64,000 nt of DNA from Planctomycetota bacterium (GCA_016209605.1 JACQVS010000106.1:74274-138273); one strand, 5' to 3'. Numbered from the stretch's first letter, positions 39,741 to 62,311 are shown. Numbers and translations are program-made. The notes: generated from the sequence alone by a model not told the origin.

Positions 39741-39777
39741 GGATCCAGCCTCTTGAATTCCTTATTTTGGTCGCAAA

Positions 39778-45542: not shown

Positions 45543-48500
45543 TTAATTGGCACAAGGGGGATAATTGGCGCAGCCGAGGTCTTGTGGGGAGCCTGGCGAA
45601 TCGGGATCGGACCCGCAGGGCTCGCCCGGCGGACCGGGATCGGCCGGCGGCGTCCCCCCGAGGAACGTGAACTTCAAGATGGTGACGCCATCGGAGATGT
45701 CGAGGGCGCCATCATTATTGGCATCGGCGGCTTCCCTGCAGGCGGGGCCCGGATCGCCAAGAAAGAGATGCCGCAAGAGCACCACCGCATCGGTGACTTC
45801 CAGGGCGCCGCTCGAGTCCACATCCGCCCTATGGAAGAGGGGCGCTTCAACTCCTCCGGGCTGAGGCGGGATTTCAGGCCCGGAGATGGAATTGGGGCGG
45901 CCAGGGCTTCCCTGGCGAGCCGATGCCCCCCAGGACCCTGGCAAGCGGTTATCGCTCCGCGAGTCGATGAGCTCAAGGCTCGGCCCGCCCCCATCGGCCT
46001 CCTCTGGCCAGGGCGGATCATCCCCGTAAGCGACGCTGTCCATCAGCCGGCCGGCCTCATCCCACAAGGAGATGGTGTCGCCGCCGTTTGCAAGGAAAAA
46101 GGGCAGGTCCGTTCCGGCCACCTGGACGATGTTGTAATACTCGAAGACCGCCCGAGTGTTCCTCGAGAGAACGAGGAAGCCGTCAGGCTCAATGAGCGTT
46201 CCCTCTGGAAAAACATACTCCGCGGCGACGCTCGCGACCTTCAGCTTCCACCCGGAGAGATCCATGGTCCGGTGGAGGTTGTTCTTGAGCTCGATAAACT
46301 CGATGTCGTAGTACCGCGCCCGGTACATGATCTCGTTCACCACCACATCGCCCGGGACCGGAGGGCCGCTCTTCACATCCAACGCCAAGTACTCAAAGCC
46401 GTGGCGCCCGGGATCGGGCAGGAAGCCCTCGCGTCCTTTATCGTCGCGGGCGGAAAAGCAGTAAAAGAGCCGCGCCTCTTTGTGGAGAGGCGGGATGGCG
46501 ACCGCATAAAAATCGTGGATCCTGGAGTCGACCGCGGCCATATCCACGGCCGACTCCTCGCCGCCCTGAAGGAAGTGCAGCTTCACTGACACCAGGTTGC
46601 TGGGCCCGAGGTCATAAGTGCCATCGTAGCGGCTGCCGAGGGCGTTGGCGGTGAAGGTCAAGGCATCGCCGGGCCCGGCGGGCTGCGGCCCCACGGAGGC
46701 CTGGGAGAGAAGCGGCTCCCGGTCGAGGAACTCGGCCAGATATTTCCTCCGGCTGCTGACATAGACTTTGTCGAAGCGGGCATGGAAAGAAAAGCCCTTC
46801 CAGTTCCAGCTCGTGTCAAGCGCGTTCCACTTGTCGACGTCCATTTGCGCCTCCTCGCCATCGGTCTTCTGGATGCGGTCGATGACCGGCTGGATCTCCG
46901 TCTCCGTGAAGTAAGTGACCAGGGCTTCGGCCAGGGTGTCCTTGAGCTGGTCCCTGAACTCCGGAACGCCAAGGTAAGCGCTTCGCAGGGCGCTGACCAT
47001 GAACTCTTGAGGCTCCGGGTTGAGCGTCGAGCCATCGTAGGGGTGGAGGTTGTGGCCCTGGGCGGGCGGCGGCTTGCGGCGGCTGTAGCCCCACGTGATG
47101 TCCATGTCCCAGGGGAAGCGCACCCAGCGGTTGCCGTTGAGCTCATCCTGGTAGAAATAGTAGTTCTGCGAGGTGCTGTCCCAGTGGGTCGAAAGGATGA
47201 TGGCGGCGAGGTAGCGGCGGTAAAGCTCCAGATGGACGTTGTTTTCCAGGAATCCCTTGGTGCCCGTGCCTCCGCCCTCCGAGAGCGAGACGATGTATTC
47301 CACCCGGTGCCACTCCCCGACCTGCCAGCGGAACTGGCCCGACTCGTTGATCCAGCGGATGCCGGCGTTGACGAGATGCAGCCCTTCGCTGCTCGAGTTC
47401 AAGTAACGCAAGGATGGGCAGAGGGTGCCGCTGAAGGCGTGGCCCGGCGGATCCCCCAAGAATAGCCCCGCTCCGGCCCAGTTGTCCCCGGTCTTCTGGC
47501 TGGTGATGCGGACATCGTAGGTGACGGTGATGGGCCGTTTGGAAAAATCGATGATGCCGGGCCGGGCAAGGCGGTGGTGAGAAGCTCTCAGAGGGGAGAC
47601 GAGGCGGATGGCGCCGCCGGCTTCCCAGGTCCCCTCGACTCCGGTCCAATCGTCAATGGCCTCCCCGTTTTCAACCAGCAGGTTGCAGGAATTGGGAGCG
47701 CTGCTTTGGTCGGCGATGCAGATCCCATCGAACTCCGCCAGGCAATTGTAAGCGATCAGGCCGATCGAGGCCCGCTTGGTGTTGAACTCGCTGAGCCCGA
47801 GCTGGGTGAAGGTCGGAAGAGCCGGCCGGACCCCGCCGTCCCGCTTCCAGATCCGGCCGGCGACCATCATCGTCCCCGGGGTGTCCGACGACGAGCCGGC
47901 CAGCCCTTCGACGAAGTTCCGGATGCTGGAGTAATCGGCGCGGTCGTTGCTTTGCTTCTCATAAGCGCTGGAGTAAGAGGGGACCGGGTAGTTGTGAGCG
48001 GAGGCCGTGCGGCCATGCTTGTAGAGGTCGCCGAGCCCGGTGAAGCCGTTTCGCTCCAAGAAAGTCTCATCGATCGCCTCCACCTCCACATGCCAGCCGA
48101 AAAAGCTGTCATTGACCATCAGGCGGATGAAGCGCGTTCTGGAGGAGGGAACGCCGGCGCGGTCGAAGGTCAGATAGCAAAGCTTGTCCTTCAAGCCGTT
48201 GTCGCCCCGCTGGTAGGGATCATCCCAGTGCATGTTCCCCTGAATGACCAGGACCTCGCGCCCCTGGTAGCGGTCCCAGTCGGGAAACTCCAGGCGCCAG
48301 GAGTACTTCAGCCGTCCGGCGTGCCGGCTGGCGAAGCCGCCGCGGTGGCGGATGGCCACCTTGCGGTGCACCCGGCCATCGAGGACGGCGAAACCTGGAA
48401 AGGCGTCATCGAAATGAGGGTAGCGCGGGTCTCCCGGGCTCCGGATCTGGGCATTGTCATCGAGGATCTTGAGTTTTTCCGGGGAAAGGAAGATCAAGAT

Positions 48501-49502
48501 GATGGGAGCCGGCGTGTCGATGCTCCCGCCGTCTACAAACCAGGCGTAAAAGTCCGATTCATCGCCGGCGGGCGGAAAGGGACGCTCGGCCCCTCGATCA
48601 TCGACAAGGATGACCTTGAACTTGGCGAGGGTGCGGTCAGGAAGCGGTTCCACGGCCACGGTGTATTTCCCATCGGCCGCTTTCGAGTCCGGCCACGCCC
48701 CGTCGTCGCGCATGGCGTGGTCGCTAGCAAAATTGTTGAGGAAGAGGCGGAGGGTGATGGCCTGGAGCGGGATCTCTGAAAAAACCTGGGCGCTCACCTT
48801 CACCTGATCCGCGGGCGTGACCGCCGTGGGGTTGACTCTGACATCGTAGGCCATGGGAGGAAGGGCCGCGGCGCTGGAACGGTTGGGGGCGCCGGGCGTC
48901 GGCGGCCGGCCAGGTCCCCAGTTGCCGGGAAAGTCGTGAGGCGCCGCCGGCTTGATCAACTCCAGCGCTGCTCCTTCTCCATCCGCCTCCTGGGGCCAGT
49001 CTTCGTTGTCGTTGTACTCCACTTGATCGACGACGGCCCCCTTGGAATCGGCCAGGAAGATCTTCTCCCCCGAGTTGCTCAACTTCCCTTCGTAAATCCC
49101 CGCCAGGTTGATCCCGGGATAGGTTCTCAAGAATTCATCCCTCGTTGCCGCGACCACGGCGTATTCCGAGGCGCCGAGAACAAAGCCGGCTGGAAAGACG
49201 AAGCGGATTCCGCCGCTCAAGATCCAGCCCGAGAGGTCCGCGGCCTCGCCGCCATTCCAGAGCTCGATGAATTCTTCAACCTCGAGCGATCCGGGGGGGT
49301 TGTAGTGGATCTCGTTAATGATGACCTGGGAGGCGGCAGGCCGGGTCCACAGCAACGCCAGCCCGAGAGCGGCCAGTGCGAGGCCGTGAATTCCCGTCCC
49401 GCTCCCGCACCTTGCCGCCAGTGGCGTGAAAAATTTCTTTTGAACGATCACGGGCAGGGGAAGCTCTCGCAACTGAACTTTAGAACCTCGACTGATCCGC
49501 AT
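45543..49502 (-). CDS. Secreted LTD - CotH - LTD - dockerin-like/Cys-tail protein (CotH-family atypical kinase)
   Basis: Two lamin-tail domains (VIINEIHYNPPG..EFIELWN; VVVNEIMYRA..EFIELKN). CotH core (KYSWRLEFP..., NYYFYQDELNGNRWVRFPWDMDITWGY). C-terminal FHRADVDSSGALEVTDAV...ADANNDGALDISDGV...CGSD...GCANYPPC. An alternative GTG start at 49451 forms a GTGA overlap with the upstream stop. Confidence 0.85.
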   Translation of the reverse strand: MRISRGSKVQLRELPLPVIVQKKFFTPLAARCGSGTGIHGLALAALGLALLWTRPAASQVIINEIHYNPPGSLEVEEFIELWNGGEAADLSGWILSGGIRFVFPAGFVLGASEYAVVAATRDEFLRTYPGINLAGIYEGKLSNSGEKIFLADSKGAVVDQVEYNDNEDWPQEADGEGAALELIKPAAPHDFPGNWGPGRPPTPGAPNRSSAAALPPMAYDVRVNPTAVTPADQVKVSAQVFSEIPLQAITLRLFLNNFASDHAMRDDGAWPDSKAADGKYTVAVEPLPDRTLAKFKVILVDDRGAERPFPPAGDESDFYAWFVDGGSIDTPAPIILIFLSPEKLKILDDNAQIRSPGDPRYPHFDDAFPGFAVLDGRVHRKVAIRHRGGFASRHAGRLKYSWRLEFPDWDRYQGREVLVIQGNMHWDDPYQRGDNGLKDKLCYLTFDRAGVPSSRTRFIRLMVNDSFFGWHVEVEAIDETFLERNGFTGLGDLYKHGRTASAHNYPVPSYSSAYEKQSNDRADYSSIRNFVEGLAGSSSDTPGTMMVAGRIWKRDGGVRPALPTFTQLGLSEFNTKRASIGLIAYNCLAEFDGICIADQSSAPNSCNLLVENGEAIDDWTGVEGTWEAGGAIRLVSPLRASHHRLARPGIIDFSKRPITVTYDVRITSQKTGDNWAGAGLFLGDPPGHAFSGTLCPSLRYLNSSSEGLHLVNAGIRWINESGQFRWQVGEWHRVEYIVSLSEGGGTGTKGFLENNVHLELYRRYLAAIILSTHWDSTSQNYYFYQDELNGNRWVRFPWDMDITWGYSRRKPPPAQGHNLHPYDGSTLNPEPQEFMVSALRSAYLGVPEFRDQLKDTLAEALVTYFTETEIQPVIDRIQKTDGEEAQMDVDKWNALDTSWNWKGFSFHARFDKVYVSSRRKYLAEFLDREPLLSQASVGPQPAGPGDALTFTANALGSRYDGTYDLGPSNLVSVKLHFLQGGEESAVDMAAVDSRIHDFYAVAIPPLHKEARLFYCFSARDDKGREGFLPDPGRHGFEYLALDVKSGPPVPGDVVVNEIMYRARYYDIEFIELKNNLHRTMDLSGWKLKVASVAAEYVFPEGTLIEPDGFLVLSRNTRAVFEYYNIVQVAGTDLPFFLANGGDTISLWDEAGRLMDSVAYGDDPPWPEEADGGGPSLELIDSRSDNRLPGSWGASARQGSPGRPNSISGPEIPPQPGGVEAPLFHRADVDSSGALEVTDAVVLLRHLFLGDPGPACREAADANNDGALDISDGVTILKFTFLGGTPPADPGPPGEPCGSDPDSPGSPQDLGCANYPPCAN

Positions 49503-52500
49503 TCCGGGAAAGGCGCCGCCGGCGGAGCACCACCCAGGAAGGCGAAGTACAGGTCGATGATGGCGTCCGTTTGATTGATGTTCCCATCCCCGTCCGCATC
49601 CAGCGCTTCCAGGCAGGTTCCAGGAGATCCTCCCAGGAAGGCATAGAGCAGGATGAGGATGGCATCGGTGGCGTTGATCTCTCCGTTGGATTCGACGTCG
49701 CCGCGGCGGAAAAGGTTCCCATCCGGCTTCCCCGCATAAAGCTCGATCTCGTCAAAGACGTTTTGAAGCTGCGTCACCACACGGATGGCGCGCGCCTGGA
49801 CCTGGTTGAAGCCGTAACGGCGCCGCAAGTTGGGAAAGTCGTTTCCAGAGAGGTGGTCCTTGGCCGCGCCCAGAGGCTTCCAGTTCACGGCGGCCACCGC
49901 TTGGTCGCTCGCGTGGTCAAACTCCTCGGCAGCGTACTCGACGATGTGCAAGCCGCCAGCCCGGTCAAACAAGTTTCCCAGGTTGTCTCTCCCCAGCGCG
50001 ATCTCGCCGACGGCGCGGGGGCCGCCGGTGAAATAAATCCCGGCGTAGATCTTGCCGGAGACCGGCCCCGCCTCGGCGCCAAGCCAGCTGTTGTCGTTGC
50101 CGTAAAAACCGTCGTTCAAGTGTGGAATGGAATGCTGCGGCAAGTCGAGGGTCGGCGTTCCAAAGGCGACGGCATCGGCCGCCAGAGCCAGGTTGCCGTT
50201 GGCAAAGAGGGGAACGTCGAAGGGGAGCGCCGGAGTGGAGAACGGCCCCCCAACCTCGAGCAGCGCCAAAGTCTTGAGCCCGGGCGGCGGCTCCACCACC
50301 TCCCCCGCCTCCTCGTACACCTCCAGCTCATCGATGGCCGTCCCCTCTCCCAGTCCGACGGCGGGAACCAGGATCCGCACGGCGGTCGCCTCGACGGCAT
50401 TGAAATTGAAGCGATGGCGCAGCCAGGGGAGCCCGTCGGGAGGAAAAGCGCCAGCGTAGTTGGCGTAACCCACGCTCTTCCACTCTGAAGCCGGTGTGGC
50501 CGCGCCGGCATCCGGGACGGTAGCGACCTGGAGGATGTAAAGGCCCTGGTTGCGGTCAGTGTACTCCTGGGCTTCGCCGCCATTGTCGCGCCCGAAGGCG
50601 ATGCTCCGGATGGTGAACAGCCCTCTGAGGTTGATCCCGGCAAATCCGGGATTGCCGCTCTCGCCGATCCAGCTGTTGGTGTTGCCGTAGAGGCCGTCGT
50701 TGAGATGGGCCGTGATATGGAAGTCGAATCCCGCCAGGGAATCGATGGCGAAGGCCGTCGCCTCCGGCCTCACCGCCAGATCCTTGGCTGGCTCCAGGGA
50801 GCCGCTGAGCTCGACCAGCTTCAGCTCCTCCCCCAGCTCCGAGGTGTCCAGGTAAAGCTCGATCTCATCGAGCGCGTTCCCCTGGCGGGTGATGATCCGC
50901 ACCGCCCGGGCTTGAACCAGATCCAGCCTGTAGAGCCGCCTCAAGCCCGGCCCGGCGGCGCCGAGGTGCCCTTCGGCCTGGCCGACCGCCGTCCAGCGGG
51001 CCGTCTCGATCAAGCCGGGAAGGGTGAAATCGATGAGGCTTTCAGTGACCTGAAGGATGTAGGGCCCCTCCGCCCGCTCGGAAGCTTGGCCGGTATTGTC
51101 CCTCCCCAGAGCGATGCGGTTCACGGCCCTCGGGCGGTCTTGAAAAAAGACCCCGGCATAGACGAGGCTCAGGCCGCCGGCCGGCTGCTCTCCAAGCCAA
51201 CCGCTCGCGTCTCCGTAGAGGCCATCGGCGAGCGCGTCGATCTTGTGAGGATCGGCTGTCGGCGAGCCGAAGGCCCTGGCATCGGCGGCTCGAGCCAGGT
51301 TGCCGGCCTCCGCGCCCGGAACATCCCCTGGGGCCGCGGGAGTCGCACCCGGGCCGCCGGTCTGAAGAAGCTGGAGCGGCGGGAAGGCGGAGCCGCGGTT
51401 CACCACGATCTTCCCGAGTTCGAGCTCGTCAAGGGCGTTCCCAAGAGCGGTGACCACGCGAACGGCGCGGGCGCTCACCGGCGCTGGAAGCCGGTAACGG
51501 CGGCGCAAGTTGGGAGGCGCCTCCTCGAGATGGGCGCGGGCCCGCCCCAGGACTTGCCAGGTCGCGGCGGCGACCTGCGCATCGTCGGTGAAGTCGAACT
51601 CGTCCTGGGTGTACTCGATCAGGTGGGCGCCCGCGGCGCGATCCGCGTACTGGTTCAAGTTGTCGCGGCCAAGGGCGATCTCCTCGATGGTCTTGGCCCC
51701 CCCGGTGAAGTAAATGCCGGCGTAGACCCGGCGGCTCGAGAGGCCCTCCTCGTTTCCAAGCCAGCTATTGGGGTTGCCGTAAAGGCCGTCGTTGAGATGG
51801 GGGATGGTGTGGGCCGGATCGGGATAGGGAGGCGTGCCGAAGGCCACCGCATCGGCGGCTCGAGCCAGGTTCCCCTCGGCCAGGGTGGAGACATCCCCGG
51901 GGGAGATCGGGGGATTCACCGAACCCCCTTTCTCGATAAGTTCCAGGTCGGGGAAGAAAGGGCAAGGGTCCCTGTCCTCGCCCGGAATACCGTAAACTTC
52001 CAGTTCATCGATGGCGGTCCCGTCTCCCAGGCCGGCGGCGGGAACCGTGAGGCGCACGCCGGTGGCTTCCACCGGCGCGAAGTTGAAGCGGTGGCGAAGG
52101 TAGGGCTTTTCCGGACAGAGGCCCCCGCCGTAGACCACCTGGCCGATGGCAGTCCAGCTGGCATTGGGGGTGAGGTGGTCGGGATTGTCTGCCGTGGTGA
52201 ACTGCAGGATGTAGCGGCCCCCGGAGCGGTCGGTGTAAACCTGCGCTTCGCCGCCGTTATCGCGGCCGAAGGCGATGCTGGCGATCGGGAAGCGGCCGCC
52301 GAAGTTGATCCCCACGAACAAGCCGGTCTGGCCGATCCAGCTGTTCGAGTTGCCGTAGATCCCATCGTTCAGGTGAGGGATGTTGTGGATCGTCTCAAAG
52401 CCGGCAAGGGAATCCGGGGCGAAGGCAGCGGCTCCAGGGCCCGCGGCCAGGTTGTCGGCGGCGAACTCGCCCCCCTCCTCCACCAACTGCAGGTCCGCCA

Positions 52501-53128
52501 GAGGGGGGAGGACGCAGTTTTCGGCGAGGACTTCGCCGGCAGCCTCGTAGATCTCGATCTCGTCAATGGCGGTGCCGAGGCCCAGGCCGGTTCCCGGGAC
52601 GATCAAGCGGATGCCGGTCGCCGCCACCGGGGAGAAGTTGAAGCGGTGCCGGAGCCAAGGGGAGGGGGGGCACAATCCATCGTAGAAGACTTCGCCGATG
52701 GTGACCCAGTCCGGGTTTGGAGTCGCCGCGCCCGGCGAGGGCGCCTGAGTGTACTGCAGCACGTAACGGCCCTGATTGCGGTCGGTGTACTCCAGGGCCT
52801 CGCCGCCGTTATCGCGGCCGAAGGCGATGCTGGCGATGGTGAAGCTCCCCCCCAGGCTGAGGCCGGCAAAGCCGGGATTGCCGGTATTGCCGATCCAACT
52901 GTTGGTGTTGCCATAAATCCCATCGTTCAAGCGCTCGATCCGGTGGACATCAAAGCCGATGTCGGCGAGCGCATCGATGGCAAAGGGAACGGCTTGGGGG
53001 CCGGTGGCGAGATTGTTGGGACCGAAGGCACCGCCCACCTCGACCAGAGCCAGTTGCGCCTCGAGGCGGGCAGATGCCAAGGACGCTAGCAGAATTGAAA
53101 AAGCTAACGGTTTGAGCAGCGGCTGCAT
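49448..53128 (-). CDS. Secreted giant repeat protein A: six ~170-180-aa discoidin-like modules (order I-I-II-II-I-II) + dockerin-like/Cys-tail
   Basis: I place the start at ATG 53128 (GAAGGAG RBS; MQPLLKPLAFSILLASLASARLEAQ). Each module carries HLNDG(I/L/F)YGN.NSW(I/L)G and ...FGRDN.... C-terminal FRRGDVESNGEINATDAI...LDADGDGNINQTDAI...ECGS...SCESFPCP. Confidence 0.8.
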   Translation of the reverse strand: MQPLLKPLAFSILLASLASARLEAQLALVEVGGAFGPNNLATGPQAVPFAIDALADIGFDVHRIERLNDGIYGNTNSWIGNTGNPGFAGLSLGGSFTIASIAFGRDNGGEALEYTDRNQGRYVLQYTQAPSPGAATPNPDWVTIGEVFYDGLCPPSPWLRHRFNFSPVAATGIRLIVPGTGLGLGTAIDEIEIYEAAGEVLAENCVLPPLADLQLVEEGGEFAADNLAAGPGAAAFAPDSLAGFETIHNIPHLNDGIYGNSNSWIGQTGLFVGINFGGRFPIASIAFGRDNGGEAQVYTDRSGGRYILQFTTADNPDHLTPNASWTAIGQVVYGGGLCPEKPYLRHRFNFAPVEATGVRLTVPAAGLGDGTAIDELEVYGIPGEDRDPCPFFPDLELIEKGGSVNPPISPGDVSTLAEGNLARAADAVAFGTPPYPDPAHTIPHLNDGLYGNPNSWLGNEEGLSSRRVYAGIYFTGGAKTIEEIALGRDNLNQYADRAAGAHLIEYTQDEFDFTDDAQVAAATWQVLGRARAHLEEAPPNLRRRYRLPAPVSARAVRVVTALGNALDELELGKIVVNRGSAFPPLQLLQTGGPGATPAAPGDVPGAEAGNLARAADARAFGSPTADPHKIDALADGLYGDASGWLGEQPAGGLSLVYAGVFFQDRPRAVNRIALGRDNTGQASERAEGPYILQVTESLIDFTLPGLIETARWTAVGQAEGHLGAAGPGLRRLYRLDLVQARAVRIITRQGNALDEIELYLDTSELGEELKLVELSGSLEPAKDLAVRPEATAFAIDSLAGFDFHITAHLNDGLYGNTNSWIGESGNPGFAGINLRGLFTIRSIAFGRDNGGEAQEYTDRNQGLYILQVATVPDAGAATPASEWKSVGYANYAGAFPPDGLPWLRHRFNFNAVEATAVRILVPAVGLGEGTAIDELEVYEEAGEVVEPPPGLKTLALLEVGGPFSTPALPFDVPLFANGNLALAADAVAFGTPTLDLPQHSIPHLNDGFYGNDNSWLGAEAGPVSGKIYAGIYFTGGPRAVGEIALGRDNLGNLFDRAGGLHIVEYAAEEFDHASDQAVAAVNWKPLGAAKDHLSGNDFPNLRRRYGFNQVQARAIRVVTQLQNVFDEIELYAGKPDGNLFRRGDVESNGEINATDAILILLYAFLGGSPGTCLEALDADGDGNINQTDAIIDLYFAFLGGAPPAAPFPECGSVEVLKFSCESFPCP

Positions 53129-53168
53129 GGCTTCTCCTTCATGATCTAGGGCCGTGGTTCTTGAAAAA

Positions 53169-56100
53169 TCATGGACAACCCACGTTTCCGCCGCAGCGGG
53201 CGATCTCAGGCACGAGGAGGCATCCCGCTCCCTGGACCGGCGGGGGGCCTCCGGTAAAGAGGTGCCGCGCCAGGAAGAGGATCTCCGGGATATCCACCTG
53301 ATTGTTCCCGTCGAGATCAAGAACCATCAAATTGCCGGGACTCGTCAGGTCATCGCCGCCGCAGGGGGAATCCACCCCCGAGCGGTCGAGGATGAAGAAG
53401 CCGCGGAACTTCAAGCGGAGGATGCACACGATGTCGGTCACATCGCGCCTCCCATCCTGGTTGCAGTCGCCGGCAAGCTGGTAGCGCGGCTCAAAGAGCT
53501 CGATCTCGTCGATGGCGTTCTGGCCCTCGGTGAGGACGCGGATAGCGCGGGCGCTGAGGAGATCGAAGCGGTAGCGATGGCGGAGGTGAGCCATCCCATC
53601 GGTGAGGTGGGCCTGAGCCAGGCCCACGGGAATCCAGTTGGCGGCGTCGGTGGCCCCATCAGCCGCCGGATCGAAGGTATCCAGGGTGTACTGGACCAGA
53701 TAAGGCCCGGCGGCGCGGTCCAGGAACTGGCTCAGATTGTCGCGGCCCAAGGCAATGCCATGGATCTGCCGGGGGCCGCCGGAGAAATAAACGCCGGCAT
53801 AGACTTTTTGAGACGTCGGCCCGGGCTCGTTGCCGAGCCAGCTGTTGGAGTTGCCGTAGAGGCCGTCATTGAGATGCGGGATGGTGTGGGCAGGGTGCGG
53901 AAAGGGCGGCGTGCCGAATGCCACGGCATCGGGAGCCCGTGCCGCGTTCCCATCCTCGAAGGTGGGGACATCGCCCGCCGCGGCCGGCGTCGCCAGGGGG
54001 CCGCCGGTCTGGACCAGCTCGAGGGGCACTGGGACGACGCATTCCAGGCTCCCCGCCCCCGGATAGTTGTAGGCCTCGAGTTCATCGATCGCGGTGCCTG
54101 CAGCCAGGCCGGTTGCCGGCACGATCAGCCGGATGCCGGTCGCCTCAACGGCTGGAAAGTTGTAGCGATGGCGCAGGAACGAGCTTGGCGGGCAAAAGCT
54201 GTTGACGTCGATCTGGCCGATGGTGATCCAGTCGCAATCCGGCGTGGTGGCGCCGGGCGCGCTCGCCGTGGTGTACTGGAGGATGTAGAGCCCGGTGGCC
54301 CGGTCGGTGAAGGTTTGGGCTTCGCCGCCATTGTCGCGGCCAAAAGCGATGCTCACCACCGTCCCCGGGCCGCCAAAGGCAATGCCGGCAATGCCGGGAT
54401 TGCCGGTGTTGCCGATCCAGCTGTTGGTGTTGCCGTAGAGGCCATCGTTCAAGTGCTCGATCCGGTGGTTGTCAAAGCCAATGTCGGCCAGCGCGTCGAT
54501 GGCGAAGGCGAGCGCTCCCGCGGTTGACAGATTCTTGGCGTCGAAAGTTCCCCCAACTTCGGACAAGACAATTTCACCGACCACGGGATCCAGAAGCTCG
54601 AGCTCGTCAATGACGTTTCCAAGGGCGGTCAAGACCCGCACCGCACGCGCTTGAATCCCGCCGAGGCAGTAAACGTGGCGGAACGCCGCCAAGCCATCGC
54701 TCAGGTGTGCTGTGGCTTCGCCCACCGTCCGCCAGTTGGCGGCGTCGGTGGCCGCGTCGCTGGCAGGGTCGAACTCATCCAGGGTGAACTGGACCAGGTA
54801 AGTGCCAACCGCCCGGTCGCCGAAGGTCCCGGTGTTATCCCGCCCCAAGGCGAGGTTGCGGATCCTCCTGACCCCATCGGTGAAGTAAATTCCCGCGTAA
54901 ACTTTCCCCGAGGCCGGCCCCGGCTCGTTGCCGAGCCAGCTGTTCGAGTTGCCGTAAAAGCCATCGTTCAAGTGCGGGATGGTGTGGGCAGGGTGCGGAA
55001 AGGGCGGCGTCCCGAAAGCCACGGCGTCCGGGGCGCGGGCGACGTTTCTCAACGCCAGGCTGGGGACATCGGTCGGCAGCGCCGGGGTGGTCACCGGCCC
55101 GCCGGTTTCCACGAGCGGCAAGACTGGAGGAGGCGGCGCGCCGATTTGCATCCCCAGCTCGAGCTCATCGATGACGTTTCCCAGAACGGTCAGGATGCGG
55201 ACCGCTCTGGCGGAGACCTGGCTGAAACTGTAGAGGCGGCGCAAGGGGGAAGGGGTCGTACAGAGCGCGGCAAATCCAATCGCCGTCCAGGCGGCGGCGT
55301 CCACCGCGGCGTCGTTCGATGGATCGAACGCATCCTGGGTGTACTGGATCGTGTAAATGCCGTCAATGCGGTCGCCAAAGGCGCCGAGGTTGTCGCGCCC
55401 GAAGGCGATTTGCGCCAGGTCCTTCAAGCCGTCATTGAAATAAATCCCGGCGTAAACCTTTCCCGAGGCCGCCCCGGGCTCGATCCCGAGCCAGCTGTTG
55501 GAGTTGCCGTAGAGGCCGTCGTTGAGGTGCGGGATGGTGTGAGCCGGCGCTGGAAAGGGCGGCGTTCCGAAGGCGATGGCATCGGCGCCGCGGGCGAGGT
55601 TGCCATCCGCGAGAGCGGGAACGTCTCCGGCTAGGGCCGGGGTGGTCAAGGGGCCTCCGGTCGCGAGGGGCGCCAGCAGCGTCGGGGGAGGTGTGGCGGT
55701 GACCGCCCCCGACGCGGCGTAGATCTCGATCTCGTCAATGGCCGTGCCCGCAGGCAGCCCGGTCGCGGGGACGAGCAGGCGCACCCCGGTCGCTTCAATC
55801 GGCGGGAAGTTGTAGCGGTGGCGCAGCCAGGGGGTGGAATCGGGAAAGACGCAGTTGTAATTCAGCTCACCGATTGCGGTCCAGTCGGAATCGGGAGTCG
55901 CGGCAGACGGGGAGGCCACCTGCGTGTACTGGAGGACATACCGCCCGGCGGTGCGGTCCATGAAGGTCTGCTCCTCGCCGCCGTTGTCGCGGCCGAAGGC
56001 CAAGCTGGCCACCGTCTTCAAGCCGCCGAGGCTGATACCGGCGATCCCCGGGCTGCCGGTCAAACCGATCCAGCTGTTGGTGTTGCCGTAAATCCCATCG

Positions 56101-56297
56101 TTCAAGTTGACGATGAAGTGAACCCCGAAATCGAGCTGGTCGATGGCGAAGGCCGCGGCGCCGGCCTCCCGGGCCAGATTGCCGGCATCGAAAGCACCTC
56201 CCACCTCCGCGAGCTCAATTTGCCCCGCAAGCCGGGGTGAAACCAAGACGATAAGGAAAAACAACAGGGAACATGAACTCATCCAACCCTTTCGCAT
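53169..56297 (-). CDS. Secreted giant repeat protein B, a paralogue of A: five modules (I-II-II-I-II) + divergent dockerin-like/Cys-tail
   Basis: I place the start at ATG 56297 (GGAGGT RBS; MRKGWMSSCSLLFFLIVLVSPRLAGQ). Same two module subtypes as A. C-terminal GDCNQDGRRDVTDIV...LDLDGNNQVDIPEIL...GCLLVPEIARCGGNVGCP. Confidence 0.8.
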   Translation of the reverse strand: MRKGWMSSCSLLFFLIVLVSPRLAGQIELAEVGGAFDAGNLAREAGAAAFAIDQLDFGVHFIVNLNDGIYGNTNSWIGLTGSPGIAGISLGGLKTVASLAFGRDNGGEEQTFMDRTAGRYVLQYTQVASPSAATPDSDWTAIGELNYNCVFPDSTPWLRHRYNFPPIEATGVRLLVPATGLPAGTAIDEIEIYAASGAVTATPPPTLLAPLATGGPLTTPALAGDVPALADGNLARGADAIAFGTPPFPAPAHTIPHLNDGLYGNSNSWLGIEPGAASGKVYAGIYFNDGLKDLAQIAFGRDNLGAFGDRIDGIYTIQYTQDAFDPSNDAAVDAAAWTAIGFAALCTTPSPLRRLYSFSQVSARAVRILTVLGNVIDELELGMQIGAPPPPVLPLVETGGPVTTPALPTDVPSLALRNVARAPDAVAFGTPPFPHPAHTIPHLNDGFYGNSNSWLGNEPGPASGKVYAGIYFTDGVRRIRNLALGRDNTGTFGDRAVGTYLVQFTLDEFDPASDAATDAANWRTVGEATAHLSDGLAAFRHVYCLGGIQARAVRVLTALGNVIDELELLDPVVGEIVLSEVGGTFDAKNLSTAGALAFAIDALADIGFDNHRIEHLNDGLYGNTNSWIGNTGNPGIAGIAFGGPGTVVSIAFGRDNGGEAQTFTDRATGLYILQYTTASAPGATTPDCDWITIGQIDVNSFCPPSSFLRHRYNFPAVEATGIRLIVPATGLAAGTAIDELEAYNYPGAGSLECVVPVPLELVQTGGPLATPAAAGDVPTFEDGNAARAPDAVAFGTPPFPHPAHTIPHLNDGLYGNSNSWLGNEPGPTSQKVYAGVYFSGGPRQIHGIALGRDNLSQFLDRAAGPYLVQYTLDTFDPAADGATDAANWIPVGLAQAHLTDGMAHLRHRYRFDLLSARAIRVLTEGQNAIDEIELFEPRYQLAGDCNQDGRRDVTDIVCILRLKFRGFFILDRSGVDSPCGGDDLTSPGNLMVLDLDGNNQVDIPEILFLARHLFTGGPPPVQGAGCLLVPEIARCGGNVGCP

Positions 56298-56385
56298 ATT
56301 TACCTCCAAAGACCCAACCACTAGGGATTTTAGAAAAAAATCGTCTAACCTGAAATCACATCATGGACTGGTTTTGACAGACACT

Positions 56386-59172
56386 TTATATCCCGTCCGA
56401 CTGCGAAGGTCGAACGATCGTAGCCGGACGATCGAGCCGATACTGGTAGTCAGGCCACAGCGGACAGTTGAGATCGATCCAGCACTTGACGCGGTGCGTT
56501 TCATCGCGGCTGAGCTGGACATCGTGGTGGCCCGCATCGAGGAGGTGCCACAGCCTGCTGCGGACGGTGCCGAACGTGAGCGGCTCGGCTTTCGCGTGCT
56601 CGCGGCCCCACGTCATGTCGAAGTAGTGCACCCAGCCTTTGGAGATCAACGTGCGATACGAAGCGGGCACACGATGGGCGTCGAGCGCGCCGCTCAGGTC
56701 GATGCCGTTCTTGTATGCTGCATCGTGGCAGCTGACACAGCGAGCATCCCATACCGGTTGCACGACCTTTTCATAGGAGAACGGTTCCGCGCCCCACGAA
56801 GGCGGCTCCAATCCGCGTGGCGCGTGCCGCAGCGCGAGCGTCGCGTGGTTGGACGCGGCAGAAGAGCGCTGCTCGTGACAGCCGATGCAGCTCCGCCGTT
56901 CGCCTGGTTGCAATTGAACGACGCTGCGCATCCGTTGTATCTCGTTCAGATTCTCGTCCAGTAGCTGAAAAAACAGCACCTTGCCGGCCGGCGCGTGGAA
57001 ACTGACCGAGCCGTCCTCTTCGACCGGCACGATGCCGAGCGATGCCTTCGCAACGTAACCGGGCCAACCGTGCGGGCCGTTCACCAGGTGGATCGGGGTC
57101 GCGTAGTAGTCTTGAAACGGCGGGTGGTCGCTCTGGTACTCGCCGCTCGGCAGCCGCACTAGATCGGCTCGCACTTCCTGGCACACACGGAGGTATTTGA
57201 TGGCGCCGCGCTTCACGACCGGTTCCAGCCCGTGGTAGATGTCCTGGACAATGAACTGGCCCAGTTCGGCTCCGGCGGACTCCGCCTGGGCCTCAGGGAG
57301 CACCGGCGGCGCCGGCATCGGCCGCAGCGGCGCCGGCGACATGCTGCCAATCGATGGGTCGAGATACAGGAGCTCGCGGTTCCCGAACCGGTCGATCACG
57401 TACAGCCCGAACCGGTCCCGCGGGGCATGGCTGACGAGGAAATAATCGCGGGCGATCGGGACCGGGTCGCGAAAGCACTCTTTCTGGGCCCAGCTCATGT
57501 GGTAGTGCGGCCGCACGTCCGGCGTGATGTTCGTGATGGCCTTCGAGTTGAACCGGCCCTGGTTTGGGTCGATCAGCGCGATGGGTCCGTTCAGGTCGCC
57601 GCCGTGGGAGATCAACGTGCAGCACAGTTCGCTCGTGCCCGGCACTTCACGGCCGTTGACGTAGCAGTTGAGCGTGTTGTTGCCGAACAGCAGTTCGGGG
57701 TGTGTGCCGTCGGGCCGAATAGCCCAGAGCGTGTGGCCGAAGTCGGCCCCTTTGTCGAGGTACTCCGACCGCGTCCAGAGGATGCGGCCGTCGCGCATGA
57801 CGGACGGCGCCCATTCGCTCAGGTTCGCGTACGACAGCGGCCGGATGTTCTCACCGTCGGCGTCCATGCGGAACAGCACGAACGCCTGCGGCCGCCAACA
57901 CAGAAACCGAGCCTTGCAACGCGTCGAGATGAACGCGACGCCACCGTCCGGGAGCGGGCATGGATAGTAGTCGTGAAACGGGCCGTCGGTGAGCTGCCGC
58001 AGGCTTCCCCCGTTGGCGTCGGCCACCATGACGTGGAAGTAGTCTTTTTCCGACGGCCGGTAGCCGAAGTAGACGCGCGTCGCGTCAAACGTGGCCATCG
58101 GATCGCGGGCCACGCCGCCTCCCGCATCGAACAGTTGCGAGAGCTTCGCCTCGCTCGGCTCGAACCGGCCGTTTCGTCGCGGTATGTCCAACACGACAAT
58201 CCCGCCGCCCGGCCGGTATTTCGCATCGAGGATGTCGCTGTAGTTGTGCGACGGCTCGTACGGATGCCGCTTCACGAACAGGATGCTCGAGATCGCCGCC
58301 AGATCGGGATCGCGCCAGAAGAGTTGCCGCTTGGCCAGGCGGACGTCGAAGTACAGAGCCACATCATATTCGGCATCTCGCGCCGGCGCCGCGGCCGCCT
58401 GCCGGCGCCGCAACTCGGCCAACTGGTTCCGTTCGGCCAAGACGTCGAGCCCCTTCGCCGCCAGTCGGTCGAGCATCGTCTCGAACTGCCGCAGCACGCG
58501 GGTCACGGGATCCGATGGATCAACACGCGACCACGTCGCTTGCTCGCAGAGAAACGCGTACCGAAGCAGCCCGTCCCAGGTGACCGGCTCCGGCAGCGGG
58601 GCGCCGGTTCCGATTTTCCGGACCGTCTTCCACGTCTTCCCGTCGAGCGAGGTCTGGATTTCAAACTCAACCGGAACGCGGTCCGCAAAGCGCCCCTCGC
58701 GGTCGCGTGAGAAAACGACCCGAGCCACTTCAGCCGGCTGCGGCAGCTCGATCTGGGCCCATTCTCCCGACGTGCCCGCGGCAATCCAACTGTGGTTGTT
58801 CCCATACAGCCCATCGTTCAGGTGGGCAATCTGGTGGATCGCATAGCCGGGCAAGCACGACGACGCGCTCGCCAGCGCGCCGCTTGCCGGCGCAGCGAGA
58901 TTTCGTCCGCCACCCGGCCCGAAGATTTCCAGCTCATCGATGCACGGCTCGCTCTGCGAGCTTTCCAGGACCACGAACCGGATGAAGCGGGCCTGCGTGG
59001 GTGGAAACGTGAGCACGTTTTGCTTGTCGGCCGAGATCGCAAGCGGCAGGCCCTCACCCGCCGCTGCCTCCGCCGGCTGCCAAACATCCAGTCCGGCAAG
59101 CCCGGCGATGGTCGCTGCCGCTGCCGCCAAGCCAAGCAACATCCGTCCTCGAGCACCGGTCTTCGCGTTCAT
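56386..59172 (-). CDS. Secreted protein: two discoidin-like modules + beta-propeller-like region + C-terminal domain with two CXXCH motifs
   Basis: I place the start at ATG 59172 (MNAKTGARGRMLLGLAAAAATIAGLAG). The second module shares the HLNDGLYGNNHSWIA motif with proteins A and B. CIGCH is encoded near 56876-56890 and CVSCH near 56722-56739. The overall make-up resembles planctomycete proteins annotated as hydrazine-synthase-alpha-like. This is tentative. Confidence 0.75.
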   Translation of the reverse strand: MNAKTGARGRMLLGLAAAAATIAGLAGLDVWQPAEAAAGEGLPLAISADKQNVLTFPPTQARFIRFVVLESSQSEPCIDELEIFGPGGGRNLAAPASGALASASSCLPGYAIHQIAHLNDGLYGNNHSWIAAGTSGEWAQIELPQPAEVARVVFSRDREGRFADRVPVEFEIQTSLDGKTWKTVRKIGTGAPLPEPVTWDGLLRYAFLCEQATWSRVDPSDPVTRVLRQFETMLDRLAAKGLDVLAERNQLAELRRRQAAAAPARDAEYDVALYFDVRLAKRQLFWRDPDLAAISSILFVKRHPYEPSHNYSDILDAKYRPGGGIVVLDIPRRNGRFEPSEAKLSQLFDAGGGVARDPMATFDATRVYFGYRPSEKDYFHVMVADANGGSLRQLTDGPFHDYYPCPLPDGGVAFISTRCKARFLCWRPQAFVLFRMDADGENIRPLSYANLSEWAPSVMRDGRILWTRSEYLDKGADFGHTLWAIRPDGTHPELLFGNNTLNCYVNGREVPGTSELCCTLISHGGDLNGPIALIDPNQGRFNSKAITNITPDVRPHYHMSWAQKECFRDPVPIARDYFLVSHAPRDRFGLYVIDRFGNRELLYLDPSIGSMSPAPLRPMPAPPVLPEAQAESAGAELGQFIVQDIYHGLEPVVKRGAIKYLRVCQEVRADLVRLPSGEYQSDHPPFQDYYATPIHLVNGPHGWPGYVAKASLGIVPVEEDGSVSFHAPAGKVLFFQLLDENLNEIQRMRSVVQLQPGERRSCIGCHEQRSSAASNHATLALRHAPRGLEPPSWGAEPFSYEKVVQPVWDARCVSCHDAAYKNGIDLSGALDAHRVPASYRTLISKGWVHYFDMTWGREHAKAEPLTFGTVRSRLWHLLDAGHHDVQLSRDETHRVKCWIDLNCPLWPDYQYRLDRPATIVRPSQSDGI

Positions 59173-59238
59173 GAGAGGTCGCCTCGCGCACAAATTCCAC
59201 CCCGAAGCACCCAAAAAGGTTGAAAAACGAATAAATGG

Positions 59239-59268
59239 ATTATGCCCCATCCCCATGAGACCCGTCAA
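59239..59268 (-). promoter_or_regulatory. Sigma-70-like promoter candidate for the discoidin/CXXCH gene and downstream exoprotein genes
   Basis: The minus strand reads TTGACG (59268-59263), N18, CATAAT (59244-59239), about 65 nt upstream of the ATG at 59172. Confidence 0.3.
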
Positions 59269-59294: not shown

Positions 59295-62249
59295 TTATTT
59301 ATTCTTCTTCAAGAGCTCGATCCGCGCCCGCGCCCAGGTGGGATCGAGCGGGCCGGTAAGGCGCAGATCCTCGAGGGCGCACTGCGGGTCCAGGCGCACG
59401 GCGATCCGCCCGAAGGGGCCGGGCGAGGCGGCGAGCGGGGCCTCCACGGCCACCCGCCCCGCCAGCTCCACCCGGACCCCGATGCCGCGAAACTCGATCC
59501 GGAAGGCGCCCGGCGGGCCGCTTCCATCCGATGCGTAAAAAGCCCTCTCGCCGCCGCTCCCCTCTTCAAAGACCGAGAAACCGGCCGCCGCGGCCGCCCC
59601 CAGGCCGATGCAGAGCCGGTCGAAGGCGAAGATCAGCCGCCCCTTGCGGCCGCGGGCTTTCGAAGGCTTGGCGGGCGCCGCCGGGGCGGACCAGCTCCCT
59701 TCCACCGTGACCGGCAGGCGGAAGATCGCCACCGTGTCCAGGGCCTCGTTCAAGTCGTTGCCTGAATGGAGCAGGCGCCCCTCCTGAACCGCCCAGCGCC
59801 TGGGGTGGAAGCGGAAGTCGCTCAATTCCGCGCTCGACTCGAAGGGATAATCGAGCCGGATGGCGGCGGAGGCGAGCGGCTCCGCCGCGGCCGCTCTTCC
59901 CGCGAAAAACCGGGTGGTGATCCATAAAAGATCGCGGGCTCGGTCACGCCGCTCCGCCCAGACCTCCGGATCGCGCCGCAGGGATGGCGGCAAGCGAGCG
60001 CCGCCGAGCAAATCCTCGTATGCCTGGAAAGCCTCCTCCCAGCGCCCGGCCGAGAGGACCTTGGCGGCCTCGCGCGCTTGCGCCGCCGCTTCCAAAGCCT
60101 CCTCGAAGGCGCCCCTCGCTCCGGGCGGATCGCCCCCCTCGGCAGGAGGGGCCGCCGGCGCGCTCAAGAGAGCGCGGACCTCCCCCGGCACCTCCTCCGG
60201 AAAGGCGGTGAAGATCCTCTGCGCCAGGTCGAGGCGGCGGTGCGCCAGGGCCCAACCGGCCCCCTGGCTCGCGAGCCGGGAGTCTTCGCCGGAGAGGGCC
60301 CCCCACGCCAGCACCGTCACGGGATGGAGGTCCGCGATCGCGAAACGCTTTCCAGTCCCGGCCTCGATCAGGGAAACCCCCTCGAAATCACGCTCGACCT
60401 GAACGGACACGGGGCCGCGCTCGCCGCCGGCCCTCAAGAAGACCTCGAGCCGCCGGCCGGTTCCCAGATCCTTGAGACGTGAGGAGAGCCGCCCCCATAC
60501 TTCCTTCTCCGCCCCCTGAACCCATTCCGATCCGGCCGCTGAAAGCTGGCCCAGGGAAAACTGGATCAGCGCGGCTGCCTCGGGAGGAAGCGGTCCCTGA
60601 ATGTTCTCGAGCGGAAAGAACGACCCGAGCCGCGGCAGCGCCCTGGCCAGAGCGGTCCAGGCCCCGGCCAGCAGGGCTCGCGCGGAGTCCCGGCCACGCC
60701 CCGACATTGCGGCCAGAGCCTGCCGCACCGGGTCGGGATCGAGCCCGGGCGGCCGCGCCAAGGCCGAGGAGGCCTCGCCGCTTCCGGCCGGCCGCGCTGC
60801 CTTCGGACTCGCCGCCGACGGCGCTTCCGGAAGGTCGGGCAGCGGCCGCGCCGGCTTGAAGAGCAGCAGCCCCGCCCCCAGAGCCAATGCCAGCCCCAGG
60901 CCCGCGGCCGCAAAGAGCCCGTCCCGAAAGTCGCTCCGAGGCCCGCGACCACCCGGCTTGCGCCGGGCGGTGCCCGGCGAGAAGGCGCCAGACAAGGCGG
61001 GCCGACGTAGCCTTATTAACCGGAGAAATAAGGCGAGGAGGCCCAACGCCGTATGGCGCCTTCGCAGCCGGCCCCAGTTCTGTTGCAGAGTGGCCGGATG
61101 GATTTTTGGGACGGGCTCTGACCACTGCCGGCGGGCTCGGAGCGGCGGCGCCGGCGCACGCACTGCCGCCGGCCCCGGTGCCGGAGGGCCTTCCCCGGCG
61201 ATCCTCTTATCGCCGCCCGCCAGCGTCTTCAACGCGTAGACCAGCTCCCTAGCCGAAGCGGGGCGATCCTCGGGATTTTTTCGGAGGAGGCGCAGGAGCA
61301 GCGCTTCCATGGGGGGAGGGATCTCCGGTTTCAGCCGGCTGGGCGGCAGAGGCTCCTCTTCGAGGTGGGAGCGGGCGATCTCCTGCGGCGGGCCTTGATC
61401 GAAAGGGGGGCGGCCGGTGAGAGCGTGATACCACGTCGCCCCCAGCGAGTAGAGGTCGCTGCGCGCGGCCAACTCCCCGCGCCTCGCCTCGCCGCGGATC
61501 TGCTCGGGGGACATGTACTGCGGCGTTCCGAATACCAGGCCGTCTGGCGTGCCGCATTCCGGGGCCTGCCGGTCCTCCCCGGTCCAGAAAAGCCCCAGGT
61601 CGGCGAGCTTCACGGCGCCATCGGGAGCGAGCAGGATGTTGGCCGGCTTGACATCGCGGTGGACCAGCCCGGCGGCGTGAATGGCTTCCAGGCCGCGGGC
61701 GACGGGGATCAGCACCTCGAGGGACTCGAGCGGCGCCAAGGGCCCCTTCCTATTGAGCAGCTCTTGCAAGTTCTCGCCCGGAACCATCTCCATGGCGATG
61801 TAGTAAAAAAGGCCGTCCCGGCCCGCATCGTAAGCCTGAACGACGTTGGGATGGTTGATCCGGGCGAGGACCTGCGCCTCCCGCAGGAAACGCTCCGCCA
61901 GCCCCGACTCCTTTTCAAGCCTGGGAAAGAGGACCTTGATGGCGACGCGGCGGCCGAGGCGCCGGTGCCGGCCTTCGAAGACCATGCCGGTCCCGCCCGC
62001 GCCGATGCGCCGCACGATCACGTAATCGCCGATGCGGGCCTGCCGGGTGAAGCGGCTGAGCAAACGCCGTAGCACCCGCAGCCGTTCCTCGTCCAACTGT
62101 TTTGATTCCCGGAAGAGGTCTTCGACCGTCTTCTCGACCCCCAGGGCTTCCAGCTCCTCGACTCGCTGGAGGACCTGCTGGTAAACCGCGGGCGAGATCC
62201 AGCCTCGCGACAAGGCCAGGCGGGCGAACAGGGCGTTGGCGGCATCCAT
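59295..62249 (-). CDS. Transmembrane Hanks-type Ser/Thr kinase with a large extracytoplasmic C-terminal region (possible concanavalin/LamG-like end)
   Basis: Kinase: [39 protein letters not shown]: [21 protein letters not shown]. About 480 aa lie outside the membrane. I use ATG 62249; the ORF-track start at 62315 is a TTG forming a TTGA overlap with the upstream stop. Confidence 0.85.
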
Positions 62250-62311
62250 GGCGTCAGGGCGACCGCGCCCGCCAGGCTGGACCCGCGGGCGGCCAGCCCG
62301 GCTCCGGCCGG

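Follow-up and report, generated by a model that had tools for sequence, protein, structure and literature searches.

Tandem arrays of a predicted discoidin-like module in two subtypes, encoded beside an LTD-CotH protein gene in a Planctomycetota bacterium

We describe here two neighboring genes, A and B, located in a stretch of 64,000 nucleotides from an uncultured Planctomycetota bacterium (GCA_016209605.1, JACQVS010000106.1:74274-138273), referred to below as the window, and the repeated protein module from which both gene products are built. The two genes belong to a set of five long genes that follow one another in the same orientation, on the minus strand, from 45.5 to 62.3 kb. The original prediction had assigned to them 11 copies of a module in two subtypes, I and II. 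All 11 intervals were found to be in frame on the minus strand, with modules of 167 to 180 amino acids (aa) lying in two long open reading frames (ORFs), and the module orders that had been given, I-I-II-II-I-II for A and I-II-II-I-II for B, were correct. However, to call the genes "giant" overstates their size, as the proteins have 1226 and 1042 aa. The features of the two genes, counted from the first letter of the window, are as follows.

53169 to 56321, minus strand: full ORF of gene B
53169 to 56297, minus strand: gene B, 1042 aa, with a predicted signal peptide, modules in the order I-II-II-I-II and a dockerin-like tail with three cysteines
56220 to 56297, minus strand: predicted signal peptide of B, MRKGWMSSCSLLFFLIVLVSPRLAGQ
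55719 to 56219, minus strand: module B1, subtype I
55155 to 55679, minus strand: module B2, subtype II
54594 to 55124, minus strand: module B3, subtype II
54069 to 54575, minus strand: module B4, subtype I (modelled)
53493 to 54029, minus strand: module B5, subtype II (modelled)
53169 to 53492, minus strand: C-terminal tail of B, a dockerin-like EF-hand pair that is degenerate and carries an insertion, with a C-x8-C-x5-C-P end
49448 to 53320, minus strand: full ORF of gene A
49448 to 53128, minus strand: gene A, 1226 aa, with a predicted signal peptide, modules in the order I-I-II-II-I-II and a dockerin type I tail with three cysteines
53054 to 53128, minus strand: predicted signal peptide of A, MQPLLKPLAFSILLASLASARLEAQ
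52544 to 53053, minus strand: module A1, subtype I, an extra N-terminal copy with no counterpart in B
51992 to 52492, minus strand: module A2, subtype I
51413 to 51949, minus strand: module A3, subtype II
50852 to 51379, minus strand: module A4, subtype II, the most diverged copy, in which the core ALADGLYGDASGW replaces HLNDGxYGNxNSW
50315 to 50824, minus strand: module A5, subtype I
49736 to 50275, minus strand: module A6, subtype II
49448 to 49735, minus strand: C-terminal tail of A, dockerin type I, with two D-x-[DN]-x-[DN]-G loops, GGAPP and a C-x12-C-x5-C-P end

The likely start of B is at 56297 (MRKGW), with a GGAGG Shine-Dalgarno-like motif just 5' of it, and the likely start of A is at 53128 (MQPLL), with AAGGAG just 5' and at a distance of 40 bp from the stop codon of B. 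A gap of 88 bp separates B from the gene upstream, which encodes a protein referred to here as protein C, and the ORF of the CotH protein gene downstream overlaps the end of A. A scan of the locus for promoters and terminators returned no more sites than were present in shuffled controls. Long ORFs on the opposite strand, for example, those at 50705 to 53089 (plus strand, 794 aa) and 41426 to 45298 (plus strand, 1290 aa), were set aside as genes by inference, being taken as by-products of a G+C content of 62 to 67%.

The 11 modules are clearly of one family. A profile made from the six modules of A alone retrieved exactly five modules in B, with E values of 1e-55 to 1e-74, and 27 columns are invariant across both subtypes, including H, LxDGxYG, W, GRDN, R, W, R, and DExE. 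In the numbering of B4, the invariant polar residues are H37, N43, D44, Y47, N49, R80, N82, D91, R92, R135, D164, and E165. The hallmark motifs follow the order H-x-I-x-HLNDGxYGNxNSW(I/L)G, FGRDN, DR, RHR(Y/F), and IDE(I/L)E(V/L)Y, and the linkers between modules in A and B are 6 to 17 aa long. The predicted division into two subtypes is real and was recovered with 100% bootstrap support; sequence identity is 56 to 67% within subtype I, 45 to 68% within subtype II, and 33 to 45% between the subtypes. With the core common to both, the subtypes differ almost solely by insertions and deletions in loops. Relative to subtype I, subtype II has a 12-residue insertion near the N terminus, four additional residues ahead of (Y)AGI, and an acidic three-residue insertion ahead of a conserved W, and it lacks three residues after RDN and five residues ahead of the last strand; in the predicted models described below, the subtype-distinguishing positions fall in loops or low-confidence segments. 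None of the invariant or near-invariant module columns is a cysteine. A disulfide between N- and C-terminal cysteines is typical of eukaryotic FA58C domains and is commonly missing in bacterial members.

Scans of A and B against Pfam and NCBIfam gave no match on the modules, even at an E value of ≤1, and detected no catalytic domain in either protein; module B4 scanned on its own likewise matched neither PF00754 nor PF22633. In a 72-sequence family alignment, six members matched PF00754 weakly (best E value, 4.2e-6). When this alignment was used as input for AlphaFold2, the models obtained had a pLDDT of 94.3 and a pTM of 0.90 for subtype I (B4) and a pLDDT of 88.9 and a pTM of 0.87 for subtype II (B5). 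Foldseek searches of the Protein Data Bank (PDB) with both models returned carbohydrate-binding module family 32 (CBM32) and F5/8 type C domains with a probability of 1.0, E values of about 1e-6 to 1e-7, and target-normalized TM-scores of up to about 0.8; the matches include 4a44, 4a41, 2v72, 7jnd, the C-terminal domain of SpGH29 (6org), the CBM71 of BgaA (4cu9/4cua), and the N domain of galactose oxidase.

A bridge at the sequence level is provided by protein C, whose N-terminal domain passes the threshold of Pfam PF00754 (F5_F8_type_C; 44.8 bits versus a cutoff of 28.2). In an hhalign comparison, the profile of the 11 modules matched this domain over 99 columns with a probability of 98.4% and an E value of 1e-14, and the HLNDGxYGNxxSW core is present in protein C, as had been proposed. 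Searched against PDB sequences, the 72-sequence profile reached the CBM71 of BgaA (4cua) over nearly its full length at a marginal E value of 0.0057, while the 11-module profile reached the same protein only at 0.25. The suggested resemblance of the core to discoidin domains was thus borne out for both subtypes, by the structural matches as well as by the Pfam-positive domain of C. The accompanying statement that no described family has this organization holds at the level of sequence, where no Pfam or NCBIfam model matches, but not at the level of the fold superfamily, which is discoidin; an established Pfam family of known function is reached only as that superfamily. On the basis of the empty domain scans, the models, the structural matches, and the sequence bridges, we propose that the modules are a strongly diverged branch of the discoidin superfamily (F5/8 type C, CBM32/CBM71-like), specific to the PVC group of phyla, that is missed by the domain libraries. 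As the fold is a known one, the finding is not categorically new.

The family is large. A HMMER scan of 1.84 billion representative proteins found 1308 proteins at an E value of ≤1e-3, 687 at ≤1e-10, and 277 at ≤1e-30, and many of these relatives have 2 to 11 modules and lengths of up to 6485 aa. Word-indexed searches returned mainly single-module proteins of 210 to 310 aa, and a scan of genomes, one per species, for the HLNDGxYGN pattern gave 284 confirmed matches. This pattern was designed from the 11-module alignment, the 72-sequence alignment being too diverse. Among the best 80 of the 284 pattern loci, almost all come from metagenome-assembled genomes (MAGs) of Verrucomicrobiota and Planctomycetota. 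When the whole of protein B was used as the query in a scan of species-representative genomes, no relative was found. Signals for surface sorting are frequent, with PEP-CTERM in 38 and IPTL-CTERM in 5 of the 72 aligned members. In public records, the relatives are called "hypothetical protein" or are named after other domains that they carry (HYR, LamG, and LTD), and the literature on discoidin and PEP-CTERM proteins in Verrucomicrobia and on dockerin and CBM32 in Planctomycetes does not describe the module. These distributions show a large, PVC-specific, and unannotated module family.

Subtype II is a separate subfamily within it and is tied to a dockerin-like tail with three cysteines. When 507 modules from 221 proteins were classified, 191 proteins proved to have subtype I alone, 17 had subtype II alone, and 11 had both. 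The entry P0073 is protein B of the window itself, with its start placed farther downstream, and an exact look-up of it returned no record. In a neighbor-joining tree, 52 of 60 II-like modules and the six subtype II modules of the window formed a single clade of 58 leaves that contained no subtype I module; this clade includes the pure subtype II arrays P0074 (eight stretches in the full scan), P0082, and P0103. The three-cysteine tail was present in 12 of the 28 proteins containing subtype II and in none of the 193 proteins without it (Fisher P value, 1.5e-12), and the three-cysteine ending always lies about 100 residues after the terminal subtype II module. Conversely, the PEP-CTERM motif was found in 82 of the 193 relatives with subtype I only but in 2 of the 28 with subtype II, and A and B themselves end in the cysteine-rich tail and not in a PEP motif followed by a hydrophobic helix and a basic tail. 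The tail has the form F(R/H)RGDxNxDGxxxx(T/S)D...LFLGG...C...D.(N/D)DDG...(T/S)D...LFLGG.P..P.P...CG.DP......C.....C. In A, it matches Pfam PF00404 (Dockerin_1) with 29.9 bits (cutoff, 22.9; E value, 6.3e-07), and both loops of the calcium-binding type are visible. The combination of an EF-hand pair, GGxPP, and C-x(8-16)-C-x(4-6)-C is common to three consecutive genes, namely, the CotH protein gene (45543 to 45830), A, and B, and is also found in orthologues and in another LTD protein of one related locus (L164; 16289 to 18253). No library model was found for the cysteine part. The tail may constitute a separate signal for sorting or anchoring.

The other three genes of the set are the following, the first of which is of particular relevance to a proposed function of the arrays.

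45543 to 49502, minus strand: LTD-CotH-LTD gene downstream of A, 1319 aa, with a dockerin-like three-cysteine tail as in A and B
56386 to 59268, minus strand: protein C gene upstream of B, at most 960 aa, likely start near 59172
59295 to 62315, minus strand: Ser/Thr kinase gene, scanned with Pfam

The Pfam matches of the window CotH protein are CotH (4.7e-36), LTD (5.5e-36), and Dockerin_1 (0.0068). An array gene directly followed by a CotH/LTD gene was found in four loci: the window, L164/L165, L082, and L167. These loci and two further ones that carry arrays are listed here.

L164/L165, two ENA assemblies: X1 (1146 aa, I-II-II-I-II), X2 (860 aa, I-II-I-II), and an LTD-CotH-LTD protein (1281 aa) with the same tail
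L082, ENA assembly: one array (I-I-I-II) and an LTD-CotH-LTD-dockerin protein that is 53 to 60% identical to that of the window
L167, TARA assembly: a pure subtype II array and an LTD-...-CotH-LTD protein
L166, Planctomycetota MAG GCA_035544655.1: Y1 (N-terminally cut, ..II-II-I-II) and Y2 (862 aa, I-II-I-II)
L001, JGI metagenome: two consecutive array genes

For 79 genome loci whose selection was based only on the module motif, a tblastn search with the CotH protein of the window located LTD segments within 6 kb in 40; in distant genomes, this search recovered the LTD parts only and did not detect the CotH domain. An iterated CotH-domain profile, from which the LTD parts had been removed, detected a CotH-like region that lay within the module ORF itself for 20 of the 79 loci and in a neighboring ORF for a further 12, so that a CotH-like protein is fused to or adjoins the module in 32 of the 79 genomes. 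In the 20 same-ORF loci, LTD, modules, and CotH are all in one ORF; the parts encoded by separate genes in the window are therefore a single polypeptide in many Verrucomicrobiota. One such protein, from Limisphaerales (L005:3127-9909; 2260 aa), contains two modules and matches four LTD domains and CotH (E value, 9e-7) in Pfam. We also observed that the window CotH protein has an insertion of about 215 aa in its CotH region (47259 to 47900, about aa 535 to 748) which is missing from the orthologue in L082 (1110 aa, compared with 1319 aa in the window) and which, by eye, looks beta-rich and of the jelly-roll type.

Considering these findings together, we hold it to be fairly probable that A and B are multivalent surface or extracellular subunits that serve binding or targeting in an assembly with a secreted CotH-like kinase. 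We infer secretion, ligand binding, calcium-dependent docking, and complex formation with the CotH protein. According to this model, A and B would be secreted, noncatalytic strings of beta-sandwich modules, each of which would bind a ligand, most likely a carbohydrate. A carbohydrate is favored because of the nearest structural and sequence neighbors and because the subtypes vary in loops only. Loops set ligand specificity in CBM32-type modules, and as the differences between the subtypes are confined to them, each protein probably offers two kinds of binding site, several in all. Through the dockerin-like, calcium-binding EF-hand tail, A, B, and the CotH protein would all dock, in a calcium-dependent manner, on one shared partner or on the cell surface, and the arrays would direct the CotH-like kinase to the place where it acts.

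Several points weigh against this model. A CBM32-like fold is no proof of sugar binding, since discoidin domains also bind lipids and proteins, and there is no glycoside hydrolase attached to or adjoining A and B, whose immediate neighbors are the CotH/LTD protein and protein C; a sulfatase and a GH5 protein occur only near the locus of a distant relative, L167. The tail of B was not detected as a dockerin by Pfam, its first loop being present and its second being degenerate with an insertion, and no cohesin was found by Pfam in the large window proteins scanned. The signal peptides of both proteins were read from the sequence by eye, and co-transcription of the gene block, plausible because of the short gaps and the overlap of the CotH ORF with A, is deduced from spacing alone. 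With regard to the CotH linkage, the profile used for part of it was a homemade one, the Pfam confirmation of the profile-based linkage covers a single protein (L005), and, by a rough general estimate (a handful of CotH genes per genome of several megabases), CotH would be expected in a few percent of random 12-kb stretches.

Other explanations have to be considered. One that we regard as unlikely is that the arrays are substrates of the kinase or building blocks, that is, repetitive surface-layer or matrix proteins that would be phosphorylated by the CotH-like protein. In Bacillus, the spore coat is patterned through phosphorylation of the repeat proteins CotB and CotG by CotH. This Ser/Thr kinase acts on both by polyphosphorylation (PMC7821199), and, by analogy, the conserved order of array gene and then CotH gene, the highly repetitive nature of A and B, and the conservation of Ser, Thr, and Tyr in the core motifs YGNxNSW and LQYT could be explained in the same way. 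However, CotB and CotG consist of low-complexity serine-rich repeats and not of folded beta-sandwich domains, and modules that form part of the CotH protein, as they do in 20 of 79 genomes, fit a targeting domain better than a substrate. We consider it quite improbable that the arrays serve as adhesins or as structural components of the envelope, with modules that recognize protein or lipid and not carbohydrate, that they have no functional connection with CotH, and that their proximity to it reflects only a secretion or anchoring route shared through the tail. Discoidin domains elsewhere are established to have phospholipid or collagen as ligands, PEP-CTERM or IPTL-CTERM signals are present on most single-module relatives, which are surface proteins, and the shared tail alone could account for the clustering; on the other hand, fusions of module, LTD, and CotH occur in many genomes without the three-cysteine tail, which argues for more than shared sorting, and the nearest structural and sequence neighbors are carbohydrate-binding modules.

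The model of targeting subunits could be extended, although we put this forward only as a speculative and rather doubtful possibility, to a widespread extracellular CotH-kinase system of Planctomycetota and Verrucomicrobiota in which the HLNDG module would be the dedicated recognition domain. LTD, modules, and CotH form one giant protein in some lineages and are encoded by separate genes in the lineage of the window, where the shared dockerin-like three-cysteine tail would bring the separate parts together again at the cell surface in a "planctosome"-like complex. Multivalent targeting in such a complex would be the task of the subunits A and B, and the complex would phosphorylate or otherwise modify an external polymer or surface.

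With respect to the origin of the two genes, the proposed tandem paralogy was upheld, with B being colinear with modules 2 to 6 of A plus the tail. Residues 206 to 1203 of A align with residues 19 to 1020 of B with 50.2% identity and 842 bits, compared with 42.9% and 577 bits for an out-of-register alignment, and the same register is seen between A (208 to 1135) and X1 (19 to 946), with 52% identity. It was this full-length colinear alignment that settled the register of A and B. The phylogeny of the modules that had been called for separated subtypes I and II but did not recover the positional pairs: in neighbor-joining trees of the individual modules (200 bootstraps), positional orthology between A and B, or between the window proteins and their relatives, received support of <60. 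This is explained in part by the homogenization of subtype I modules within X2 (L164), Y2 (L166), and P0078 (L001), where modules of the same gene pair with bootstraps of 94 to 100, which points to gene conversion or independent within-gene duplication in genes of the I-II-I-II type.

B is closest to X1 (63% identity over 939 aa) and Y1 (57%), and X2 and Y2 are 63% identical to each other. From these comparisons, B, X1, and Y1 are orthologues with a conserved module order, whereas A is a paralogue of the B type that has diverged and has one additional subtype I module at its N terminus. Since B is nearer to X1 (63%) than to A (50%), the duplication that gave rise to A and B is probably older than the split between the lineage of the window and that of L164, or else the copies have evolved faster. 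A tandem pair of arrays is seen in three other sampled loci, namely, L164/L165 (on two contigs), L166, and L001. Although misassembly of metagenomes is common in repeat-rich regions, it is hardly credible that the tandem layout and the repeats are an assembly artifact or a decaying pseudogene: neither reading frame is interrupted over its length of 3.1 or 3.7 kb, ribosome-binding sites are present for both, the module DNA is only 60 to 81% identical, so that the copies cannot be collapsed or misjoined reads of one gene, and independent assemblies also contain array pairs, L164/L165 and L166 with the two-gene layout and the I-II-II-I-II order and L001 with two tandem arrays.

Around the related arrays, we noted that the locus adjoins a Planctomycetota PSCyt/PSD1 pair and a DUF1501 gene in L166 (5144 to 9130) and L167 (6082 to 9601) and that a sulfatase and a LamG-GH5 protein are encoded downstream of the CotH gene in L167.

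Protein C consists of one module of the family, a middle domain similar to the hydrazine synthase alpha subunit, and CXXCH motifs (Pfam, F5_F8_type_C at 1.6e-11 and HZS_alpha at 8.1e-21). Its module is circularly permuted (58642 to 59016, aa 85 to 209): the closing strands, QARFIRFVV...CIDELEIFG, come first and are followed by the NLA...HLNDGLYGNNHSW...FSRDR...DR part, and the match to PF00754 covers profile positions 3 to 86 of 127 only. The permuted order is also present in three orthologues of C (L009:7235-11455, L117:9638-13891, and L124:9782-13822), and the longer orthologues add a second, complete module. The protein C family is well conserved, with many full-length metagenome relatives of 53 to 70% identity (L128 to L163 and other loci), and module-bearing genes adjoin C-type genes in the window as well as in L009, L014, L036, and L051.

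The block formed by C, B, A, and the CotH gene is flanked by two large Ser/Thr kinase genes, at 40820 to 45307 and 59295 to 62315. By eye, the former encodes a kinase, NTPase-like and TPR regions, and a low-complexity (GEKP/GEKA)n stretch, and the protein encoded at 29259 to 33368 ends in a similar PEKG repeat. The left third of the window (1307 to 22129) is a flagellar cluster that encodes FlhB, FliP, FliO, FliK, FliI, FliG, FliF, a sigma-54 activator, and a long FlgE-type hook protein of 802 aa, and MotA and MotB are encoded farther on (38946 to 40623). Because of this cluster and MotA/MotB, the organism is probably motile. The named relatives of its FlhB are almost all from Planctomycetota, the nearest being 63% identical.

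Secreted bacterial LTD-CotH proteins are common, including in cellulosomes, and, to our knowledge, spore coats are the only setting in which a function has been established for them. The present module provides a testable partner for these orphan proteins, and its ligand should indicate where the kinase-like domain acts. As the module has no domain model, it is invisible in public annotation; a model would annotate more than 1000 "hypothetical" PVC surface proteins (1308 representative clusters). Furthermore, the arrays with the conserved order I-II-II-I-II in three lineages are natural constructs with which to address the question of two loop types and two specificities. As far as the libraries and the literature were searched, there is no earlier description of two-subtype arrays in a conserved order, of the link between subtype II and the tail, or of the recurrent partnership with LTD-CotH proteins.

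Among known proteins, CBM32 or F5/8 type C domains, such as CBM32-5 of the Clostridium perfringens GH89 enzyme (4a44) and that of NanJ (2v72), have the same beta-sandwich fold as the modules. They also share the order of elements, with DG...W near the N terminus, an R in the strand before the last, and (I/L)xE(I/L)E(V/L)(Y/F) as the closing strand, and likewise occur as tandem multicopy arrays on secreted bacterial proteins. In contrast, the modules are only 11 to 22% identical to CBM32, none of the 11 matches PF00754 at an E value of ≤1, they are about 30 to 40 residues longer with near-invariant motifs of their own (HLNDGxYGNxNSW, FGRDN, DR, and RHRY), and no glycoside hydrolase is joined to them. 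By sequence profile, the nearest protein of known structure is the CBM71 of BgaA from Streptococcus pneumoniae (4cu9, 4cua, and 4cub; PMC4161441), which has a similar segment, NVNDKLxYNNxxANRW, and a size of about 180 aa and is a top structural match for both subtypes. Its identity to the modules is 16 to 20% with a marginal E value, it is part of a GH2 enzyme in a Gram-positive pathogen, and, unlike A and B, it has no two-subtype arrays, dockerin tail, or CotH link.

A second point of comparison is offered by dockerin-bearing LTD-CotH proteins of cellulosomes. The list of cellulosome components of Clostridium thermocellum includes Cthe_0239, with the domains LTD, LTD, Fn3, and CotH (PMC6083626), and a noncellulolytic "planctosome" with cohesin, dockerin, and LTD has been proposed for Planctomycetes (PMC6461901). 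As in the window protein encoded at 45543 to 49502, LTD, CotH, and dockerin are combined in secreted proteins; however, neither description (PMC6083626 and PMC6461901) has a discoidin-like partner module, and the window tail has an extra three-cysteine segment compared with the dockerin proteins of these systems. Finally, in PEP-CTERM and IPTL-CTERM surface proteins of Verrucomicrobiota, the globular domain is the same module, closest to subtype I. A and B differ from these proteins in having five to six modules, subtype II included, and a three-cysteine tail in the place of the PEP-CTERM anchor.

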